From Myxococcales bacterium (GTDB lineage: Bacteria; Myxococcota; Myxococcia; Myxococcales; 40CM-4-68-19), in NCBI GenBank assembly GCA_020201435.1, contig JAIVGS010000002.1:8529-72528 (forward strand): 64,000 bases of DNA, read 5' to 3'. The position numbers and the translations under genes are program-made. The notes under the pieces are model-generated. The model was not told the origin of the DNA, searched no databases, and worked only from the letters and a program-made list of their open reading frames with translations. Shown in pieces: positions 1-62,236 of the stretch (position 1 is its first letter; every line of letters starts with the position of its first letter).

Positions 1-449
1 GGCAGCGCTTTCGACGTGACCGACAAAGTCAGAATCGGCGTATCTGCCGGATTTGACTTGGAATATGTCGGCGGCGCCGGCAGGGTGCGCGGGAGCAGAT
101 TCGACGAGGCGTTGATCGCCGCCTGCACGTCCTGCTCGGCGGCGTCGATGCTGCGGTCGAGCTCGAACTGCAGCGTGATCTGCGAGCTGCCGAAGCTCGA
201 CACCGAGGTCATCTGCGCCAGCGACGGCATCTGCCCGAACTGCCGCTCCAGCGGCGTGGTCACCGCCGACGCCATCGTCTCCGCGCTCGCCCCCGGCAAG
301 AGCGTCGACACCACGATGGTCGGGTAATCCACTTGAGGAAGCGCCGACACCGGCAACTGCCGATACCCGACGATCCCGGCCAGGAGCAGGCCGACCGTCA
401 GCAGCGCCGTCGCCACCGGCCGCCGGATGAATGGCTCGGAAATGCTCAA
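1..449 (-). CDS. RND efflux permease (AcrB/MdtB family), N-terminal part; the gene runs off the left edge
   Basis: Not in the ORF track because it is open at the window edge. My minus-strand translation from TTG (449-447) gives [74 protein letters not shown]..., a canonical RND N-terminus. There is an in-frame stop just upstream. It lies last in an OMP-MFP-RND gene order. Confidence 0.85.
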
Positions 450-548
450 ATCTCACCACGGAGGCACGGAGGCCACGGAGAAAAGCTTCGGGTTTCATGA
501 GGTGCAAACCAACCAAATCTCCGTGCTCTCCGCGCCTCCGTGGTGGGC
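450..548. repeat. Hairpin repeat element, copy E1 (ATCTCACC + octamer-reiterated arm, loop, complementary arm + GGTG)
   Basis: The left arm CACCACGGAGGCACGGAGGCCACGGAGA (454-481) is complementary to the right arm TCTCCGTGCTCTCCGCGCCTCCGTGGTG (518-545) at about 25/28 positions. Flanks and architecture match E2-E4. It sits in the spacer between the adaptor stop and the RND start. Confidence 0.75.
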
Positions 549-558
549 AGTTGCAGTT

Positions 559-1767
559 TCATCGGCCGCCTCGCTTCGGGGTGTCGGCCTTGGGGCCTTC
601 GCCCTCGCGTGGAGGGCGTTGCTGACCGCCGCCGGCGGGGCGCGCTGCGACTTTGGCCCCGGCGCGGAGCTGGTTCTGGCCGTCGGAGACGACCTTTTCG
701 CCCTCGGCGAGGCCGCGCGCGACGACGGCCAGGTCGCCCTCGGTGATCTCGACCTCGATCGGCCGCGGCTGGACCGTCTGGTCCTGCTGGATCACGTAGG
801 CGAACGTCCCTTCCGGGCCGCGCTGGGGCACCGTCGAGGGCACCACCAGCGCGTCCTTCCGCGTCGTGAGCAAGAGCCGCGCTTTCACGAACTGGTTCGG
901 CCACAACAGCCGTCCAGGATTCGGCACCACCGCCTTGAGCCGCATCGTCGCGGTCGCCGAGTTGATCTGGTTGTCGACCAGCTCCAGCCGCCCCGACGAG
1001 AGCCGCTGCGCGCCGTCGCGGCTCCAGGCCTCGACCGGCAGCTGCCCGTTCTGCAGCTGCGCCATCACCCGCGGCAGCTCGTCCTGCGGCAGGCTGAAGA
1101 TCACCGCGATCGGATCGAGCTGGGTGATCACCACGATCCCGTTCGCGTCGGACGCGTGGACGAGATTGCCGGGGTCGACCTGCCGGATGCCGGTCACGCC
1201 GTCCGCCGGCGAGCGGATCGACGCGTAATCGAGGTTGAGCCTGGCGGCGTCGATCGTCGCCCGATCGACCTCGACCGCGCCCTCGAGCTGCCCGACCAGC
1301 GCGGCCTGATCGTCGGCCTGCTGGGGCGCGATCAGCTTCTGCTGCGCAAGGTTGCGATATCGTTCGAGATTCAGCTTGGCGCCCTTGAGCTGCGCCACGT
1401 CCCGCGCGAGCGCGCCCTCGCCCTGCTTGAGCTGGTTCTGGAACGGACGCGGATCGATCTGCGCGAGAAGATCGCCCGCGTGCACCGGCTGGCCCTCGCG
1501 GAACAGCACCTTGTCCAGCCGGCCGTCGACCTGCGAACGGACGGTCACGGTCTTGAGAGCGGTCACGGTGCCGAGCCCGTCGAGGAAGATGGGCACGTCC
1601 TTCTTCTGCACCGTCGCCTCGACGACCGGGACCTGCCGATTCGCGGCCTGCTGCTGCTCGCGCGCCGCGCCCGCCTGCTGCGCGCTGGTGCGTTTGCGGA
1701 CGAAGAACGCGATCGCGGCGATCACGACCACCGCGACCACGATCAAAATGACTCTGCGGTCCTTCAC
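559..1767 (-). CDS. Efflux RND periplasmic adaptor subunit (membrane fusion protein, HlyD/MdtA family)
   Basis: ORF 559..1827. It has an N-terminal TM segment (ILIVVAVVVIAAIAFF), then a coiled-coil/lipoyl/beta-barrel type sequence (VRSQVDGRL..., RSPADGVTG, ATMRLKAVVPNP). The start is set at GTG 1767, preceded by GGAGG and 4 nt after the upstream gene's stop. Confidence 0.9.
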   Translation of the reverse strand: MKDRRVILIVVAVVVIAAIAFFVRKRTSAQQAGAAREQQQAANRQVPVVEATVQKKDVPIFLDGLGTVTALKTVTVRSQVDGRLDKVLFREGQPVHAGDLLAQIDPRPFQNQLKQGEGALARDVAQLKGAKLNLERYRNLAQQKLIAPQQADDQAALVGQLEGAVEVDRATIDAARLNLDYASIRSPADGVTGIRQVDPGNLVHASDANGIVVITQLDPIAVIFSLPQDELPRVMAQLQNGQLPVEAWSRDGAQRLSSGRLELVDNQINSATATMRLKAVVPNPGRLLWPNQFVKARLLLTTRKDALVVPSTVPQRGPEGTFAYVIQQDQTVQPRPIEVEITEGDLAVVARGLAEGEKVVSDGQNQLRAGAKVAARPAGGGQQRPPREGEGPKADTPKRGGR

Positions 1768-1771
1768 GGAA

Positions 1772-3046
1772 TTACCTCCGTCCCAGCGCGCGCAACAGCT
1801 GCGCCCGCGCCTTGGACAGCGTGTCATCGGCCTGCACCAGCTGCGCCGCGGCCTGCGTCACCGCGACCTGCGCGTCGCCCAGCTCGATCGCGCTGCCGAC
1901 GCCGACCTGGTAGCGCTGCTCGGCGAGCGTCAGGCGCACCTTGGCGTTGGTCAGCGCTTCCTGCGCGGCCGAGATCGACTCCTTCGCCCCCCGCACCGCG
2001 AGCCGCGCGCTGTCGACGTCGCTGCGCAGCGTCTGCTTGAGGAGGTCGAGCTGGGCGACCTCGCTGCCGACGTTGGCTTCGGCCTCGGCCACCTGCGCGC
2101 GCGTGGAGCCGCCCTGGAAGATCTGCCAGGTGGCGACGACTCCGACGGTCGCGTTCCAGCCGAGGTCGGAGAGGCTGGTGCCGCTCTGGGCGACGCCCGC
2201 GCTGCCGCTGATCGAGGGCCAGTACTGCCCCTGCAGCGATCGGACGGTCAGCTCGTCGGCGTGGACCAGCGCCTCGATCGAGGCGAACTCCGGGCGGTCC
2301 TTGACGGCCTCGTCGTAGAGCGGCTGGGTGTCGGCGTCCTCGTTCTGGACCGCGGGCATGGCTTCGTCGGCGACGTCGTAGTCGGTGGTGCCGAGGATCC
2401 CCATCGCCGAGTTGAGCGTGACCTTCGCGGTCTCGTACGTATTCTGCGAGTTGATCAACGCGACCCGCGCGTTGGCGGTGTCGGTGCGGGCCTGGGCGAG
2501 GTCGATCTCCGGGTGGGTGCCGGCCTTGACGAAGCCTTCGGTCTGCTGGAGGTGCTTCTGCTGGTTGGCGAGCGTGTCGGCAGCGACCTGGACCAGCGCC
2601 TTGTCGGCCCGCGCGTCGAAGTAGGCGGAGCGGACGGTGAAGTCGACCGAAAGCTCGGTGGCGCGCTCGGTCGCGGCCTGCGCGTCGGCCTGGGCCTTCG
2701 CCGCTTCCCAGCGGTTCGGCGTCGAGAAGAAGTCGAACAGAAGCAGCGAGGCGGTGAGGCTGTCGGACCAGGTGTTGCCGCTCGCGACGCCGGTCGGACA
2801 CGGGGCGGTCGGGTCGGTGGAGCAGGAGGCGCTGCGGACCGTCACCGTGCCGGCGCTGTGCTGGAAGCCGGCGCGCGCGGAGACCTGCGGGAGCATCGGC
2901 GCGAACGCCTGCTGCGCGCGGGCGGCGGCTGCCTGGGAGCCGGCGCGGGCCTGGCGGAGCTGCGGCTGGTTGGCGCGAGCGCTGTCGACGGCCTGCTGCA
3001 GCGTGACGACGCGCGCCGCGGCCAGCACCGCCAGGAGCAAATTCAC
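1772..3046 (-). CDS. TolC-family outer membrane efflux protein
   Basis: ORF 1772..3046 (424 aa). It begins with a signal-like N-terminus, LTLQQAVDSARANQPQLRQA, followed by the two repeated alpha-helical/beta halves typical of OMF proteins. It is the first structural gene of the efflux operon. Confidence 0.85.
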   Translation of the reverse strand: MNLLLAVLAAARVVTLQQAVDSARANQPQLRQARAGSQAAAARAQQAFAPMLPQVSARAGFQHSAGTVTVRSASCSTDPTAPCPTGVASGNTWSDSLTASLLLFDFFSTPNRWEAAKAQADAQAATERATELSVDFTVRSAYFDARADKALVQVAADTLANQQKHLQQTEGFVKAGTHPEIDLAQARTDTANARVALINSQNTYETAKVTLNSAMGILGTTDYDVADEAMPAVQNEDADTQPLYDEAVKDRPEFASIEALVHADELTVRSLQGQYWPSISGSAGVAQSGTSLSDLGWNATVGVVATWQIFQGGSTRAQVAEAEANVGSEVAQLDLLKQTLRSDVDSARLAVRGAKESISAAQEALTNAKVRLTLAEQRYQVGVGSAIELGDAQVAVTQAAAQLVQADDTLSKARAQLLRALGRR

Positions 3047-3510
3047 GCGTCACCTCCGGCGGCTGCGGGGCCCTCGTCCGGCGCGAACTCCGCGAGATTG
3101 CGCACCACCTTACGCAACGCGGCGCGGAACATTTCCTGTTCGCGGGCCGACATCCCTTGCACGACGGCGGACCGGACGCCAGTGGCGATGGGGGCGATCC
3201 GTTGGGCGAGCCGCACTCCGGCGGCGGTCAGCGTCACGCGGACGACGCGGCGATCGCGCGGGTCCGGTTCGACCCTCAGCAGGCCGCGCCCGGCGAGGCT
3301 CTCGGCGATGCGCGAGGCGGTCGGAGGATCCATGTGCTGGCGGCGCGCGATCTCGCCGAGTGACGCGCCGGGGAGCTCGCGATTCGCGTTGAGGAACCAG
3401 AATTGCGGCAGAGTGAGGTGGCGGGGGCGGACGGCGCGCTGGACCGCCTGCTTGATGCTGCGGCGGGCGGCGCCGATGAGGAGGCCGACGTATTCTTGTT
3501 CCTGCAACAT
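3043..3510 (-). CDS. MarR family transcriptional regulator
   Basis: This is the C-terminal 155 aa of ORF 3043..3717, starting at MLQEQEYVGLLIGAARR... The winged-helix core reads LTLPQFWFLNANRELPGASLGEIARRQHMDPPTASRIAESLAGRGLLRVEPDPRDRRVVRVTLT. It has a GTGA overlap with the OMP start. The upstream part of the ORF translates a tandem repeat and was rejected. Confidence 0.85.
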   Translation of the reverse strand: MLQEQEYVGLLIGAARRSIKQAVQRAVRPRHLTLPQFWFLNANRELPGASLGEIARRQHMDPPTASRIAESLAGRGLLRVEPDPRDRRVVRVTLTAAGVRLAQRIAPIATGVRSAVVQGMSAREQEMFRAALRKVVRNLAEFAPDEGPAAAGGDA

Positions 3511-5795: not shown

Positions 5796-5905
5796 GTCGG
5801 AGATTCGGGGACACAATACTTATCTCCGACTTTAGCGCGGCCCCTTCCCCCGGCATGTATGACTCCCTGAGTCGGAGTTGAGTATTGTGTCCCCATAACT
5901 CCGAC
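5796..5905. repeat. Nested inverted repeat: two 35-bp hairpin units in inverted orientation separated by 40 bp
   Basis: Unit A (5796-5830) is GTCGGAGATTCGGGGACACAATACTTATCTCCGAC. Unit B (5871-5905) is GTCGGAGTTGAGTATTGTGTCCCCATAACTCCGAC. Each has a perfect 9-bp stem and a 17-nt loop. B matches the reverse complement of A at 30/35 positions. Confidence 0.85.
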
Positions 5906-7825: not shown

Positions 7826-10768
7826 ATGCTGGCGGTAGTTACGGCGTTCGTGCTGCTGGCGGCCGTCCCCGCCGAGCCGCCCGGCCGATTCGCGTTCCGC
7901 AGCTACGCCAGCGAGCAGGGATTGGAGAACCTATCGGTCCTCGCCATCGTCCAGGATCGCGAAGGATTCCTGTGGGTTGCGACCGAGGACGGCCTCTACC
8001 GCTACGACGGCGACCGCTTCCACCGGTTCGGCGCCGAGGACGGCCTGCCGTCCAACCAGATGACCTCGATCGCTCTCGGCGACGACGGCCGGTTGTGGGC
8101 CGGCACGTTCCGCGGCGTGGCGCTCTTCGACCAGGGCCGCTTCCGCCAGGTGGCGAAGTCGCTTCCCGATCTGCTCATCAAAGGGCTCGCCCCGGCCCCC
8201 GGCGGCGCGCTCTGGGTCGCGACCGGCGCGGGGCTTTTCTTCGAGTCGAGCCGCGAAAAATTCGACGCCGTCCCGGGGTGGCCGGCGGCCGTGTCCGCGA
8301 CGGCGGTCTGGGCCGACGCGCGCGGGATCGTCGCCGCCACTCCCGGCCGCCTCTACACGCAAAAAGAGCGACGGTGGGTCGCGCACGAGGCCGAGCCGGA
8401 GCGCATCGACGCGGTCGTCCGCGATCGCCGCGGTACCATCTGGGCGCGCTCCGCCGGCCATCTCTGGGCGCTCGCCGATGGGATGGAAAAGCTGGAGGAC
8501 TTCACCCACGTCCTGCCCGGCTCCAGCGACACCGGGTACCTCTCCCTCGACCAGCAGGGCACCCTCTGGGTCCCGACCGACTCGGGCCTCCTCTACAAGG
8601 AGGAGGGTGGACCGTGGAGCGTGATCGGACCCGCGCAGGGCCTGCCGGCCTCGTGGGCGCGCACCGCGGCCGAGGATCGCGAAGGCTCGATCTGGATCGG
8701 CGTCACCGGCCTGCACCGCGCCGTCGGCCGCGGGCTGTGGCGCGTCTATTCGACCCGCGAAGGGCTGCCCAGCGAGGTGGTGTGGACCGAATGGCGCGAC
8801 AAGAAAGGAGCGCTCTACGTCGGCACCGATCGCGGTCTGGTCCGCGCGGCCAACTCCCGCTTCGAGCTCGTCCGCGGCAGCGAAGGCCACGCCATCCGCT
8901 CGGTGACCCAGCTGAAGGACGGCGCGCTCTGGATGGGCGGCAGCCCGCCGGAACTGCTCAGGATCGACGAGGGCAGGGTCGACCGCTTCCCGATCCGCGC
9001 CCGGAAGGTGTTGACGCTCCTCGCCTCCAGCCGCGACGAGCTGTTCGTCGGCACCGACGGCGGCGGACTGCTCGAGCTGCAGGGCAACGAGCTGGTGCCG
9101 GTCGCGGTCCCCGGCGGCAGCGTGCAGGAGCGCTTCAGCCACGTGATCGAGGATCGGACCGGGCGCATCTGGGCGGCCGGCGAGCTCGGACTCGCCTTCC
9201 GCGGCAAGAACGGCGAGTGGCATCGGCTCGGCACCGCCGACGGCCTGCGCGACGAGCGCACCGCGTACCTGCTCGAGCGCCGCTCGGGCGACATCTGCGT
9301 CGCGTACCGCGAGACGATCGGTTTCTCCTGCTTCCGGCCCACCGCGCAGGGACTGCGCGCCGTGCAGCACATCGACGCGTCGAACGGCCTGCAGAACGCC
9401 CGCGTCTACCTGCTCGGCGAGGACCGCAACGGCCGGCTCTGGGTCGGCACCGGCCAGGGCGCGGACGTCTTCGACGCGCATGGCACCGAGCACTTCGGCC
9501 AGGCGCGCGGCATGGCCGGCGACGACTGCGACGCCAACGCGTTCCTCGCCGATCCCAACGGCGACGTCTGGCTCGGCACCAGCACCGGCCTGGCGCGCTT
9601 CATCGGCGGAAACTACGCAGGGCCCCCCGATCCGCCGCACCCGGTGATCGTCGAGGCCCGGGTCGGCAACTCGCGGCTGCTCGGCAAGGAGCTGCACAAG
9701 GTCGAAGGGCGCAATCCCGCGCTGGAGGTGCACTTCGCGGGCCTCTCGTTCCTCGACGAGGCGCGGGTGCAGCACCAGGTGCGCCTGTTGCCGCTCGAGC
9801 CGGAATGGCGGCAGGCCAGCGTGCGCGAGGCGCGGTACAGCGCGCTCGGGCCGGGCAGCTACGTGTTCGAGGTGCGGGCGCGGATGGCGCCGGGCGCCTG
9901 GAGCGAGCCGGCGCGGCTCGATTTCGTCCTTTTGCCGCAGTGGTGGCAGACGGTATGGTTCCGGGTCTCCGTCTCCCTGGCCGCGGCGGCGCTGCTCGGG
10001 TGGGTCGTCAACTGGCGCGTGCGGCGGCTGCAGCAGCGCAATCGCGAGCTGGAAAGCCAGGTGAACGTCCGGACCGGCGAGCTGGCCTCGGCGAACCAGG
10101 CGCTGCGGGATCTGGCGGTGAGCGACCCGCTGACCGGGCTCAAGAACCGGCGATACCTCGAGCTGGCGATGCCGGAGACGGTCGCGCAGGTGATGCGCCA
10201 CCACCGCGGCCCGAGACCGGCCAAAGCCAACGCCGACCTGCTGCTGCTGATCATCGACCTCGACGATTTCAAGAGGATCAACGACACCTGGGGCCACGGC
10301 GCGGGCGACCGCGTGCTGCAGCAGGCCGGGAAACTGGTGGCGCAGATCTGCCGCGAGTCGGACTCGCCGGTGCGCTGGGGCGGCGAGGAGTTCGTCGTCG
10401 TCGCGCGCAACGCCGACCGCGCGATGGCCGCGAGCGTGGCGGAGCGCATCTGCGAGCTGTTCCGCGAGCACGACTTCGACGTCGGCGGCGGACAGACGGT
10501 CGACGTCACCTGCTCGGTGGGGCTGGCGGCGTTTCCGTTCGCCGACCTGCCGTGGGAGGACGTGATCGAGCTCGCCGACCATTGCCTCTACGCGGCGAAG
10601 CGCGCGGGCAAGGACTGCTGGGCGATGGCGACCCCTTCTCCGGCGCTGCAGGCCGCCGACTTGAGCCGCCGACTGCGCGGCGAATTCGCCCAGCTCGTCT
10701 CCGAGCGCCAGATCGTGCTCACGCTCTCCGCAGAAGTCCCGTCCGTCCTCGCGCAGGCCGGCCACTAG
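7826..10768 (+). CDS. Sensor diguanylate cyclase: periplasmic two-component-regulator propeller repeats + Y_Y_Y-like region + TM + GGDEF
   Basis: ORF 7826..10768 (980 aa). It has a signal peptide, many repeats of the GLPSN...D..G.LWVGT type, and a TM segment (WFRVSVSLAAAALLGWVV). The GGDEF domain reads DPLTGLKNRRY...IIDLDDFKRINDTWGHGAGD...RWGGEEFVVV. Confidence 0.9.
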   Translation: MLAVVTAFVLLAAVPAEPPGRFAFRSYASEQGLENLSVLAIVQDREGFLWVATEDGLYRYDGDRFHRFGAEDGLPSNQMTSIALGDDGRLWAGTFRGVALFDQGRFRQVAKSLPDLLIKGLAPAPGGALWVATGAGLFFESSREKFDAVPGWPAAVSATAVWADARGIVAATPGRLYTQKERRWVAHEAEPERIDAVVRDRRGTIWARSAGHLWALADGMEKLEDFTHVLPGSSDTGYLSLDQQGTLWVPTDSGLLYKEEGGPWSVIGPAQGLPASWARTAAEDREGSIWIGVTGLHRAVGRGLWRVYSTREGLPSEVVWTEWRDKKGALYVGTDRGLVRAANSRFELVRGSEGHAIRSVTQLKDGALWMGGSPPELLRIDEGRVDRFPIRARKVLTLLASSRDELFVGTDGGGLLELQGNELVPVAVPGGSVQERFSHVIEDRTGRIWAAGELGLAFRGKNGEWHRLGTADGLRDERTAYLLERRSGDICVAYRETIGFSCFRPTAQGLRAVQHIDASNGLQNARVYLLGEDRNGRLWVGTGQGADVFDAHGTEHFGQARGMAGDDCDANAFLADPNGDVWLGTSTGLARFIGGNYAGPPDPPHPVIVEARVGNSRLLGKELHKVEGRNPALEVHFAGLSFLDEARVQHQVRLLPLEPEWRQASVREARYSALGPGSYVFEVRARMAPGAWSEPARLDFVLLPQWWQTVWFRVSVSLAAAALLGWVVNWRVRRLQQRNRELESQVNVRTGELASANQALRDLAVSDPLTGLKNRRYLELAMPETVAQVMRHHRGPRPAKANADLLLLIIDLDDFKRINDTWGHGAGDRVLQQAGKLVAQICRESDSPVRWGGEEFVVVARNADRAMAASVAERICELFREHDFDVGGGQTVDVTCSVGLAAFPFADLPWEDVIELADHCLYAAKRAGKDCWAMATPSPALQAADLSRRLRGEFAQLVSERQIVLTLSAEVPSVLAQAGH

Positions 10769-10890
10769 AAAAGCAACATCTCACCGCGAAGGCGCGAAGA
10801 CGCGAAGGGGTTGGGACTCTTGCAACAATCGCCGCTCCGCGAACATCCCGAAACCTTCGCGTCTTCGCGCCTTCGCGGTGCGCTTTTGTA
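10769..10890. repeat. Hairpin repeat element, copy E2
   Basis: There is a perfect 27-bp stem: CACCGCGAAGGCGCGAAGACGCGAAGG (10782-10808) pairs with CCTTCGCGTCTTCGCGCCTTCGCGGTG (10854-10880). The outer flanks AAAAGC/GCTTTT are also complementary. It lies between the DGC stop and the marR-2 start. Confidence 0.85.
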
Positions 10891-10931
10891 GTTGGTTGTA
10901 AGAGCAACGAATTCGGTGTACGTGCCGGGGG

Positions 10932-17130: not shown

Positions 17131-19184
17131 TGGACGCCCTGCTGGTTCTTTGGTGGAAGGCGGCGGTGGTGCTCGCGGCGGGTGGGGCGGCAGCCGTCGT
17201 GGCCTGGCGGGCTTCGGCGGCGACGCGGCATCTGATCTGGACGGCGGCCCTGGCGGGCGCGCTGTTGTTGCCGGCGGCCATCGTCGTCCTGCCGTCGGTG
17301 CGCGTGGTCGCGCTGCCGGCGCGTCGGGCGAAGCCGGTCCCTTCGGTCGCGCGGATGCCGGTGCCCGTCGCGCCTGTCCGGGCCGTCGTGGCGCGGCCCC
17401 CGACGGTGAGCGAGGCTTTGGTGCCCGCCGCGCCTTTGAAGCGTGTTCGCCGGCCGATCGATTGGCGGCGCGTGGCGCCGTTCGTCTGGCTCGCGGGCGC
17501 GCTCGCGCTGCTCTTGCGCATCGCCGCCGGATCGCTGCAGCTGCGCGCGATGGGTCGGCGCGCGGTTGAGATCGTCGATCCGGCGTGGCGCCGGCTGCTG
17601 GTCGAGTCGGCCGCATGCCTCGGCGTGCGGGGGGAAGTGACGCTGCTCGAGAGCGCGGAGATCGAAGTGCCGGCGACCTGGGGATCGCTCCGTCCGGTCG
17701 TCGTCCTGCCGCCGGCGGCGTCGCGCTGGTCCGATGCGCAAAAGCGCGCGGTGCTGGTGCACGAGCTCGCGCACGTCGCCCGCCGCGACGCCGCCACGCA
17801 GCTGGTCGCGCGCGTCGCCTGCGCCGTCCACTGGGTGAATCCGCTCGCCTGGGCCGCGGCGGCGGCGATGCGGGCCGAGCGTGAGCGGGCATGCGACGAC
17901 TCCGTGCTCGAGGCCGGGGCGCGGCCGACTGACTACGCGACCAACCTGCTCGACGTCGCGCGCGCCGCGCTGCGCGACGGGGCGCCGGCCACTGCGCTGG
18001 CGATGGCGCGCCGGTCGCAGCTCGAAGGCCGGTTGCTGGCGGTGCTCGATCCGCGCCGTGACCGGCGGCCGCTGAGCGCGCGGCGCGCCATCGGAGTGGC
18101 GTGCGGGGCGGCGTGTCTGGTGTTGCCGCTCGCGGCGGTGCGCGCCGAGCGCGCGAGGGCACCCGAGCCCGTCATGGCGACCGTCCCGGAGCCGGAGCCG
18201 GCGGTCGCGCCCGAGCCGCTTCCCACGCCGTCGCCGGTCCGTCGCGCGCGGCGCGCGGTCGCGCAGTCGAGCGTCTCGGTGAGCTCGAGCAGCGGCGACG
18301 TGTACGCCCCGGTCCCGCCGACGCCGCCTTCCGCGCCCACGCCGCCGACGCCGCCTTCCGCGCCCACGCCTCCGACGCCGCCGACTCCACCGTCTCCGCC
18401 CTCGGCGCCGAGCGGCAACTTCAGCCAGCACATCGTTTCGAACGACGGCAGCAGGGTGTGGACCGCCGAGGCGCGGTTCCCGCGGCTCTATCGCGAGCAG
18501 GGCGCCCGCGGCGTGCTCGAGCAGGCCGGCAAGCTGCAGTCGGACTACGCCTTGCGGCGTTATCTGTCGCTGTTGATCGAGGCCGACCCGATGCAGGAGT
18601 CGACCGCGATCGCGGTGGTCGAGAGCGCGTCGCGGATGCACGGCGACTACGACCGCGCCGAGATCCTCAAGGCCGTGGCCGCCAGGGCACGGCTCGACAG
18701 CGACGCTGCGCGCGAGGCGTTCCTGCGCGCGTGCAACGGGATCTCCGGCGACTACGAGCATGCGCGCGTGCTGCACGTCCTCGCCGATCAGTCGACGCTT
18801 TCACCCGCGCTCACCCGCGGCGTGCTCGAGTCGGCCTCGACGATCCGCGGCGACTACGAGAAGTCGGGCCTGTTGATCGCTCTCGCCGGCCGCCATCCGG
18901 TCGATCCGTCCGAATACCTGCGTGCCGCGTCGACGCTCTCGGGGGATTACGAGCGCAGCCGGTCGCTGAAGGCGCTGATCGCGGCCCAGCGGTTGCCGGA
19001 GTCGTCGCAGGTCGACCTCATCCGCCAGGCGGCCCGACTCGGCGATTACGAATCGGCCGAGGTGCTGCTCGCGCTGGCGGCGAAACAGCCTCCCTCGGGC
19101 GAGGCGCTGCGCGAATACGAAAGTGCGGCCCGACGCCTGGGCGACTACTCGCGCCAGCGGGTGCTCGCCGCGCTGCACAAGTAG
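17130..19184 (+). CDS. BlaR1/MecR1-like M56 family membrane metalloprotease-sensor with a non-PBP C-terminal repeat domain
   Basis: This is the C-terminal 684 aa of ORF 16893..19184. It has N-terminal TM segments, the HELAHVARRD zinc motif, a Pro-rich linker, then about 7 repeats of ~33-36 aa each containing GDY[DE]. Confidence 0.8.
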   Translation: MDALLVLWWKAAVVLAAGGAAAVVAWRASAATRHLIWTAALAGALLLPAAIVVLPSVRVVALPARRAKPVPSVARMPVPVAPVRAVVARPPTVSEALVPAAPLKRVRRPIDWRRVAPFVWLAGALALLLRIAAGSLQLRAMGRRAVEIVDPAWRRLLVESAACLGVRGEVTLLESAEIEVPATWGSLRPVVVLPPAASRWSDAQKRAVLVHELAHVARRDAATQLVARVACAVHWVNPLAWAAAAAMRAERERACDDSVLEAGARPTDYATNLLDVARAALRDGAPATALAMARRSQLEGRLLAVLDPRRDRRPLSARRAIGVACGAACLVLPLAAVRAERARAPEPVMATVPEPEPAVAPEPLPTPSPVRRARRAVAQSSVSVSSSSGDVYAPVPPTPPSAPTPPTPPSAPTPPTPPTPPSPPSAPSGNFSQHIVSNDGSRVWTAEARFPRLYREQGARGVLEQAGKLQSDYALRRYLSLLIEADPMQESTAIAVVESASRMHGDYDRAEILKAVAARARLDSDAAREAFLRACNGISGDYEHARVLHVLADQSTLSPALTRGVLESASTIRGDYEKSGLLIALAGRHPVDPSEYLRAASTLSGDYERSRSLKALIAAQRLPESSQVDLIRQAARLGDYESAEVLLALAAKQPPSGEALREYESAARRLGDYSRQRVLAALHK
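18315..18368 (+). repeat. Perfect in-frame 27-bp tandem duplication (CCGCCGACGCCGCCTTCCGCGCCCACG x2) in the BlaR1-like linker
   Basis: Read directly. It encodes PPTPPSAPT twice and is followed by a degenerate third unit. Confidence 0.85.
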
Positions 19185-46797: not shown

Positions 46798-46910
46798 CCA
46801 AAAAGCAAAATCTCACCGCGAAGACGCGAAGGGTTAAGTTCGCAGGCCCAACGTCGCCGAGCAACCAACCCGAAACCTTTGCGCCTTCGCGCCTTCGCGG
46901 TGCGCAGTCG
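46798..46910. repeat. Hairpin repeat element, copy E3
   Basis: AAAAAGCAAAATCTCACCGCGAAGACGCGAAGGG (arm 46814-46833) pairs with CCTTTGCGCCTTCGCGCCTTCGCGGTG (46876-46902). It lies between the lon stop and the kinase start. Confidence 0.8.
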
Positions 46911-62128: not shown

Positions 62129-62236
62129 ACTGCGCACCGCGAAGACGCGAAGGGGCTGGGTTTGGCAACCAACGCCGCCACGCATGAACCGGAAACCTTT
62201 GCGCCTTCGCGCCTTCGCGGTGCGATTTTGTTTTAG
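62118..62236. repeat. Hairpin repeat element, copy E4
   Basis: The arm CACCGCGAAGACGCGAAGGGG (62135-62154) pairs with CCTTTGCGCCTTCGCGCCTTCGCGGTG (62196-62222). It lies between two convergent stops (62128 and 62240). Confidence 0.8.

Follow-up and report, generated by a model that had tools for sequence, protein, structure and literature searches.

A palindromic intergenic repeat between the adaptor and pump genes of a Myxococcales efflux operon probably represents a recent insertion from a multi-phylum family

The left end of the 64-kb stretch of Myxococcales DNA analysed here (the window) carries part of an efflux operon on the minus strand, for which the gene order MarR-OMF-MFP-RND-RND was established by Pfam matches on a contig of the same species (L125). 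Within the window, the gene of an MdtA-like periplasmic adaptor (MFP; 559..1767, minus strand) is followed by the 5' part of the first RND pump gene (ACR_tran; 1..449, minus strand), which continues past the window edge. From its called start, the adaptor gene (open reading frame of 422 aa) encodes a product of 402 aa, which is 100% identical to a protein of the Myxococcales MAG GCA_046262975.1. As the initial annotation had proposed, the palindromic element under study, hereafter E1, is located within the MFP-RND spacer of this operon: the TGA stop codon of the adaptor gene (559..561, read 561-559 on the minus strand) and the TTG start codon of the pump gene (447..449, read 449-447) enclose a transcribed spacer of 109 nt (450..558, minus strand), nearly all of which is occupied by E1. 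The pump start was chosen as the first start codon following the in-frame stop, and that stop falls within E1. On the mRNA, the 5' foot of the E1 stem comes 13 nt after the adaptor stop codon, and the TTG codon is found 2-4 nt from the 3' foot. This TTG is itself built from the terminal T-run of E1 plus a G (GGTGAGAT-TTG-AGC), and no unpaired Shine-Dalgarno sequence for the pump start is available beside the stem. In relatives, the pump start codon at the same site is ATG or GTG.

E1 forms a long hairpin at positions ~452-547 of the GC-rich window (the plus strand reads AATCTCACC at 449-457), comprising two arms (~452-481 and 517-547) and a loop of ~35 nt (482-516) with a small internal stem. 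The arm adjoining the RND gene (452..481; plus strand CACCACGGAGGCACGGAGGCCACGGAGA, i.e. CTCACC-ACGGAGG-CACGGAGG-CCACGGAGA) is the 3' arm on the mRNA, terminating in ...CCUCCGUGGUGAG. The arm adjoining the MFP gene (517..547; plus strand TCTCCGTGCTCTCCGCGCCTCCGTGGTG, i.e. TCTCCGTG-CTCTCCGCG-CCTCCGTGGTGGG) is the 5' arm, reading CCCACC-ACGGAGG-CGCGGAGAG-CACGGAGA on the mRNA; its middle unit is of the CGCGGAG type, with one G•U in its pairing. The preserved arm pairing described in the initial annotation was recovered by folding as 28 pairs (14+6+8) with two single mismatches, at -60.1 kcal/mol for the plus strand (z -8.5) and -62.3 kcal/mol for the minus (sense) strand (z -8.5), and none of 200 shuffles folded as well.

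Four copies of the same family (E1-E4) are present in the window, where a degenerate unit pattern gave 17 matches compared with 3.4 expected. E2 (10782..10880) directly follows the stop codon of a GGDEF gene (10766-10768, plus strand) and is itself followed by CGCTTTTGTAGTT; E3 (46812..46904) lies 9 nt past the lon stop codon (minus strand), its sense RNA having a terminator-like end (GGUGAGAUUUUGCUUUUUGG); and E4 (62133..62224), which is bordered by T-runs on either side, follows the stop codon of a minus-strand gene for a hybrid histidine kinase. E2, E3 and E4 all have T-rich tails. The flanks of E1 were confirmed as those of the family, E2-E4 having the same ATCTCACC and GGTG ends, and the arm units do differ as described, being of the CACGGAG type in E1 and of the CGCGAAG type in E2-E4. 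The loop block GCAAACCAACC, which E1 had been thought to share with the other copies, did not hold up: allowing for at most one mismatch, it matches E1 alone. Compared in either orientation, the similarity of the E1 loop to the E2-E4 loops is not significant (z 1.7-2.4), whereas the latter are homologous among themselves (z 3.5-7.5), and E1 therefore represents a separate subfamily.

Other repeats were encountered in the same window. A 16-nt palindrome, TTGGTCA-NN-TGACCAA, occurs at least seven times in the 64 kb (16559, 19463, 19775, 20098, 42577, 57402 and 60969), usually followed by ATCG..TCAAATCGCT, and may represent an operator/promoter motif or another repeat family. At 5796-5905, an inverted repeat unrelated to the E family has 36-nt arms (86% complementary; GTCGGAGATTCGGGGACACAATACTTATCTCCGACT / AGTCGGAGTTGAGTATTGTGTCCCCATAACTCCGAC) separated by a 38-nt spacer, and tandem 27-nt/9-nt repeats (CGCCTTCCGCGCCCACGCCGCCGACGC...) are found at 18298-18400, probably in a coding region.

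The initial annotation had suggested comparing the MFP-RND spacer in related genomes. In this comparison, the position of E1 inside the transcribed spacer stands, E1 replacing there a 4-nt overlap of stop and start codons: among 79 orthologous operons, taken from genomes as well as metagenomes, 63 have the 4-nt RTGA overlap (ATGA or GTGA) at this junction. Spacers of at least 7 nt are found in 11/19 relatives with at least 74% MFP identity and in 2/60 more distant ones. Their contents are diverse. The spacers of L120 and L132 contain members of the E1 family with CGCGGAG arms and a T/A-run loop, and the L135 spacer contains a member in apparently opposite orientation, judging from its AAAAGCAAC flank. 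Unrelated tandem-unit hairpins occupy the junction in L123 ((GGCTCGC)n, 2314-2416), L136 ((CCGGCCC)n, ~2704-2800) and L142 ((GTTGAGA)n, ~2472-2571), and L134 (~2704-2746) has a (GGCCTCG)x4 array with one arm only, enclosed by exact 8-bp direct repeats (GCGATGAG). The diversity of these tandem-unit inserts suggests a general process making tandem-unit palindromes in this clade. Spacers of 145 nt (L138) and of 71 nt flanked by a duplication of ~20 nt (L202) were also observed, as well as spacers of only 7-13 nt with duplicated junction sequence on their flanks (L133, with 92% MFP identity, L169 and L196), which are possibly footprints. Around every insert, 3-20 nt of the junction are directly duplicated, so that both stop and start are preserved. 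Since the length of these duplications varies, and since RTGA, which they always contain, is demanded by selection anyway, they do not prove transposition.

Relatives with 78-92% MFP identity either lack E1 or have at this site a different insert or one in another orientation. Moreover, L125 and the window are 99.4% identical over 3.8 kb, and 4 of their 22 differences fall inside E1 (p = 0.004), two of these four at the R positions of a single unit. A site orthologous to that of E2, downstream of the GGDEF gene, was found in L120 (1-57, corresponding to window 10766-10900), where the flanks TAGGCAAAATCAAAATCGC|GGTGCGCTTGAAGCC are present and arms and loop are missing, which is consistent with a precise loss of the hairpin. 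These comparisons establish E1 as a lineage-specific insertion at the point where the gene of the MdtA-like adaptor and that of the first RND pump ancestrally shared the 4-nt RTGA overlap. In addition, the RND1-RND2 junction, which lies beyond the left edge of the window, is occupied in L125 (6479-6670) by a 190-nt near-perfect hairpin of (GTGCCC)n/(GGGCAC)n units (-141 kcal/mol, z -14.5) with ATGAAC on both sides; in relatives, this junction is an overlap (GTGA).

Such junctions also bear on the idea that the spacer hairpins have grown locally, by duplication of the junction, slippage expansion of short units and fold-back template switching to produce the second arm. The junctions can indeed be arranged as a graded series leading from 7-13-nt duplications (L169, L196, L133) via the one-armed L134 to full hairpins (L123, L136, L142), the duplications at their flanks range from 3 to 20 nt, and arrays are able to expand, up to 10 units in L071. 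Nevertheless, E1 and the inserts of L120 and L135 match a design of flank and unit found elsewhere in the genome and in other phyla, which growth de novo would not reproduce, and the homologous loops of E2-E4 imply copying of whole elements; we consider a local origin improbable.

The distribution of this design was determined by a genome scan with the pattern ATCTCACCNCGNAGNCNCGNAG, using one genome per species. The family design, TCACC-(CRCGRAG-N)n ... GGTGA, was found at at least 119 loci in at least 10 phyla, the matches listed including Acidobacteriota, Planctomycetota, Chloroflexota, Armatimonadota, Verrucomicrobiota, Lentisphaerota and Hydrogenedentota as well as Binatia and Alpha-, Beta-, Gamma- and Deltaproteobacteria. 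The arms are arrays of 7-nt CRCGRAG units at 1-2 nt spacing, with (A/T)T(C/T)TCACC as the cap at one end and GGTGA/GGTGCGC at the other, and the loop is free to vary. The matches show features beyond the search pattern, namely a third or fourth unit and an A-rich lead-in. Among the matches listed, an inverted partner arm ending in GGTGA(A/G) was found within 600 nt in 65/117 cases, compared with 0/123 upstream controls at the same score; about ten of the matches listed are chance matches inside genes, and roughly one in three is a 'solo' array, whose single arm has no partner in the locus. When arrays were sought in the fetched DNA without any flank requirement, CAC preceded 202 of 265. The unit consensus is C-R-C-G/A-R-A-G, with variable positions that are overwhelmingly A or G and rare exceptions, and the unit type is mostly uniform per lineage (CACGAAG in Burkholderiales, CACGGAG in Terriglobia, CGCGGAG in Bryobacteraceae and a deltaproteobacterial MAG, and CGCGAAG in Anaerolineales). 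The pattern also occurs in six viral/proviral contigs (L126-L131, IMG/VR), one of which (L128) has two adjacent hairpin copies, and viral contigs are a possible route for the spread of the family between phyla.

Several additional arrangements of the arrays were noted. Solo half-elements of the form AAAATCTCACC(ACGGAGNC)2-4...GAGAAAA (L006, L035, L063, L091, L105, L113 and others, mostly from Terriglobia) often lie just upstream of a gene start, e.g. that of a trpA-like ORF in L006. A Lentisphaeria MAG (L071) has ten consecutive CACGGAGA units, three solo arrays are clustered ~237 nt apart in L056 (7408-7904), and in two Armatimonadia loci (L078 and L108) composite modules holding arrays are repeated. 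The hairpin loops in L036, L042, L011, L027, L079, L106 and L126 contain extra arrays of short units (e.g. CGCAGAG, GGTTTGACTA, AATTGCCAAA and TTTGGTAAT), giving rise to nested or mosaic structures reminiscent of BIMEs.

Conservation of unit and flank over at least 10 phyla would also be expected if the CRCGRAG arrays were binding platforms for a conserved DNA- or RNA-binding protein and the hairpins inverted pairs of such platforms. The frequent partnerless solo arrays, some of which lie in divergent, promoter-containing spacers (6/25), and the restriction of the variable positions overwhelmingly to A or G fit this proposal. However, neither a candidate protein nor a consistent gene neighbour was found at the loci, the 8-nt period of contiguous units is atypical among known bacterial DNA-binding sites, and nothing corresponding was found in Rfam or in the searched literature, so that we regard it as improbable.

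The initial annotation had taken the joint change of both E1 arms as covariation supporting a selected hairpin in DNA or RNA, and had suggested a survey of arm variants with covariation scoring. We made use of an ungapped alignment of 70 outer stems, in which the right arms lie outside the constraint of the search pattern and therefore permit an unbiased test. The first-unit type is equal in left and right arm in 50 of 57 cases, and 90% of the cells across the 70 hairpins are paired, a fraction which falls to 35-51% when the pairing register is slid by 1-3 columns. Cells changed on both sides numbered 115, compared with 47.6 +/- 5.7 in shuffles (0/500; 70 hairpins). The proposed survey thus did reveal covariation, at a level reached by none of the 500 shuffles. 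On the other hand, this covariation is mostly a matter of whole-element homogeneity, one unit type being used in all units of both arms; only 7 mixed arms were found, 3 of which are mirrored by their partner.

A stem selected as RNA should tolerate G•U but not A•C. We therefore compared the two classes of wobble-type mismatches, limiting this strand-asymmetry test to hairpins with co-directional neighbours, for which the transcribed strand can be deduced. Sense-strand G•U pairs (35) and sense-strand A•C pairs (41) were found in similar numbers, giving a G•U share with a 95% confidence interval of 35-58%, and a share of 75% was rejected (p = 7e-8). Accordingly, the part of the earlier claim concerning compensatory change beyond chance (115 versus 47.6, 0/500) stands, and the part concerning selection on RNA does not (G•U 35 versus A•C 41), this test speaking against RNA-specific selection on the stem. 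Because there is no G•U bias toward the transcribed strand, the covariation is the signature of a DNA palindrome and not proof of a selected RNA. We infer that the arms of E1 change jointly because the repeat is maintained as a palindrome in DNA. The likeness of units within a copy would be kept by DNA-level processes, such as descent from a palindromic master copy, slippage, fold-back template switching or gene conversion, and the 'compensatory' changes would be explicable without RNA-specific selection. Compensatory arm changes in a repeated palindrome are thus, alone, not evidence for a functional RNA, and strand asymmetry (G•U versus A•C by transcription direction) together with orthologous empty sites can tell the DNA and RNA readings apart.

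These data weigh on the proposal that E1 is a selected cis-regulatory RNA hairpin which sets the stoichiometry of adaptor and pump by attenuation, processing or coupling, its covariation reflecting selection on RNA pairing. The sense strand does fold slightly better than the antisense strand (-62.3 versus -60.1 kcal/mol), the one odd pair is a G•U, and the orientation of E1 is such that a 3' U-run results and the element abuts the start codon. A structured insert of some kind is present here in at least 10 related lineages, also at the RND1-RND2 junction, and E. coli REPs and Neisseria Correia elements are precedents for differential expression within operons. Against this, the family has no sense-strand G•U bias, its covariation is mainly homogeneity of type across whole elements, E1 is missing from L133 (92% MFP identity) and from 63/79 orthologous junctions, the junction inserts are unrelated in sequence, one of them being apparently opposite in orientation, and the family lies behind unrelated genes in either orientation. 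A purpose-made regulatory RNA therefore appears a poor bet for E1.

The genomic niche of the family was assessed using gene contexts that rest on a simple, crude ORF caller. By this measure, hairpins are found between co-directional genes (<E< 17, >E> 17), between convergent genes (>E< 9) and in divergent spacers (<E> 3), the last at 3/46, below the 25% expected (p = 0.001); solo arrays lie in divergent, promoter-containing spacers in 6/25 cases. The median distance of a hairpin past the upstream stop codon is ~15 nt, and the next start codon is usually close. Co-directional copies occur equally in either orientation (17 versus 17), and their upstream genes are many and unrelated. This is the niche of REP/BIME and Correia-type repeats, independent of orientation.

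Such a niche shares features with that of intrinsic terminators, in that a GC-rich stem lies right after stop codons, T-runs occur on one or both sides (E2-E4) and divergent spacers are depleted. The family might hence consist mainly of (bidirectional) intrinsic terminators, with E2-E4 ending transcription units and E1 acting as a leaky attenuator within the operon. E2, E3 and E4 begin 0-10 nt past stops and have T-rich sense-strand tails (CGCUUUUGUAGUU, GAGAUUUUGCUUUUU), the depletion in divergent spacers (3/46) agrees with this view, and the A-rich stretch ahead of ATCTCACC becomes a U-run on reading of the opposite strand. However, with stems of 25-30 bp and loops of 20-450 nt, the hairpins are far from canonical, stem and loop being several times longer than those of intrinsic terminators, and their primary sequence is conserved across phyla. 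Many copies have no U-run, including many forward-sense copies in which it is missing after GGTGA, or are found between operon genes in tight linkage; of the hairpins that could be classified, about three quarters separate closely spaced co-directional genes, where complete termination would do harm. As for E1, its tail provides only UUU, and a consensus terminator scan gave no call on it. We rejected E1 as a canonical intrinsic terminator, given its 28-bp stem, 35-nt loop and tail AGAUUUGAGCAUUU as compared to stems of 5-14 bp, loops of 3-8 nt and a U-tract; the U-tracts of E2 and E3 are better than that of E1, but their stems are just as long. As neither the cross-phylum 7-nt unit nor the solo arrays are explained by termination, we hold it unlikely to be the main nature of the family.

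Repeats of the REP/BIME/REPIN type resemble the E1 family in being short, non-coding intergenic palindromes with many copies, arranged as singletons, inverted dimers and clusters, which lie just past stop codons and within operons in either orientation. In REP/REPIN sequences, paired changes keep the long hairpin of the doublet (PMC3116915; PMC3733652), and inverted doublets of the E1 family do form long hairpins. Differences are evident as well. REP units are defined by GTAG or CGTC tetranucleotide tags (PMC3733652), which the E1 family lacks, its ends being (T)CACC / GGTG(A). A REP half is a short imperfect palindrome, whereas an E1-family half is a direct CRCGRAG array without self-complementarity, and the REPIN analogy only partly covers the solo arrays. 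REP sequences are usually lineage-specific, whereas the unit and flank of the E1 family are found in at least 10 phyla. Finally, REPINs are mobilised by RAYT Y1 transposases, none of which was found near the family in the window or the fetched loci: a tblastn search of the window and the other fetched loci with the sole Y1_Tnp seen (L122) gave no homologues. The latter is a 201-aa Y1_Tnp gene (PF01797, IS200/RAYT-like) at 2810-3415 of a related Myxococcales contig, near the efflux operon and not flanked by family repeats.

Correia/NEMIS elements and MITEs (ERIC, RUP, Nezha) likewise share with the E1 family a size of ~100-150 bp, long terminal inverted repeats, many copies and presence/absence polymorphism between relatives. 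Terminal inverted repeats, small size, lack of coding capacity and multiple copies, as used to recognise MITEs, are all found in the family, as is presence/absence at orthologous sites (63/79 empty, filled sites that differ, and the E2 site in L120 without hairpin). The family differs from Correia elements, which have a fixed TA duplication and an IHF site, in its duplications of 3-20 nt, and from Correia elements and MITEs in its internally repetitive arms, hypervariable loop and lack of a known parent IS. Arm pairs 1.5-2 kb apart were considered as a possible autonomous parent element and rejected, as they enclose ordinary genes (alcohol dehydrogenase, S9 peptidase), and no transposase or other mobilising gene was found at the family loci examined.

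Searches of databases and literature returned little. Rfam gave no match at the gathering threshold in the window and nothing relevant in permissive mode; in seven family loci, it gave sub-threshold generic miRNA-precursor matches on the hairpins, and the sole match above threshold was an unrelated tRNA gene. A plasmid BLAST with the consensus half-element returned one irrelevant match. In the literature, searched for the arm and flank sequences as well as by subject, no description of the family or of a tandem-heptamer-armed hairpin was found, an absence which is not proof of novelty, and the E1 family is not covered in the RepRanger, triplex-repeat and GTAG/CGTC papers. Further candidates were set aside: CsrA GGA sites, since CACGAAG and CGCGAAG units contain no GGA; integron attC, dif/Xer and Chi or KOPS octamers, on account of poor fit; Shine-Dalgarno/anti-Shine-Dalgarno mimicry, since complementarity to the 16S rRNA tail is limited to GGUGA/UCACC; and the notion that CpG deamination alone produced the R-position changes, since it accounts for position 2 of the unit and not for position 5.

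Taken together, these results favour, with a probability that we put at roughly two in three, a model in which E1 is an inserted copy of a REPIN/MITE-like repeat, whose arms covary by DNA-level processes and whose effect on the operon is a tolerated side effect. E1 is thus best read as a recently inserted copy of a multi-phylum palindromic repeat family and not, on the strength of its covariation, as a purpose-built RNA switch.

An insertion of this kind should nonetheless matter to the operon. Since the 4-nt overlap of stop and start is replaced, E1 must change MFP-RND coupling. The mRNA would have to carry a stem of ~28 bp (about -60 kcal/mol), with its 5' foot 13 nt past the adaptor stop and its 3' foot 2-4 nt ahead of a weak, element-supplied TTG that has no free Shine-Dalgarno sequence. 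With this stem standing between the stop and the element-supplied start, overlap coupling would therefore be replaced by structure-dependent coupling, in which the foot of the stem would be opened by ribosomes that finish translating the adaptor gene, making the pump start accessible. Known repeats act in comparable ways: REPs alter the relative expression of flanking genes, as exemplified by the malE-malF REP and by REPs located at most 15 nt from a stop codon, and Correia elements are co-transcribed with their neighbours, the long RNA duplex being an RNase III substrate and possible terminator, with changed operon expression. By means of the hairpin and short U-run (GAGAUUUGAGCAUUU), a block to 3'-exonucleases or RNase III cleavage, E1 would probably lower pump expression relative to that of the adaptor. 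By analogy, the role in adaptor:pump stoichiometry that the initial annotation had envisaged (through partial termination, processing or coupling) is plausible. The pump genes are intact despite E1, and the insertion is therefore at least tolerated. Because the junction inserts are unrelated, losses occur in close relatives and there is no RNA-strand signature, we favour tolerance over design and regard the effect of E1 as the tolerated by-product of an insertion that is itself selfish or neutral, and not as the work of a designed regulator. The recurrence of hairpins at the MFP-RND and RND1-RND2 junctions could, however, mean that a structured spacer is selected for and not simply tolerated.

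Overall, E1 is best classed as a palindromic intergenic repeat; as a lead, the family found across phyla and the junctions colonised by hairpins are stronger than the single copy. REP-like repeats do not usually keep a 7-nt unit and flank across phyla, and the fact that this family does so hints at a conserved factor that recognises it. We tentatively suggest, as a possibility that falls short of even odds, that the TCACC-(CRCGRAG-N)n arrays, solo or in inverted pairs, form an undescribed superfamily reaching from Acidobacteriota to Myxococcota, which a conserved machinery writes or moves or a conserved protein recognises, which has its units homogenised in concert and which repeatedly colonises stop/start junctions of operons, in which case overlap-coupled genes would be turned into hairpin-separated ones. 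Because the design occurs in at least 10 phyla and no Rfam entry or description was found, a widespread class of repeats and its mobilising or recognising factor may await characterisation. Orthologous efflux operons with a 4-nt overlap, with short duplicated-junction spacers or with several different hairpins constitute natural experiments, which may be used to study the effects of long palindromes on termination, RNase III processing, translational coupling and adaptor:pump stoichiometry.
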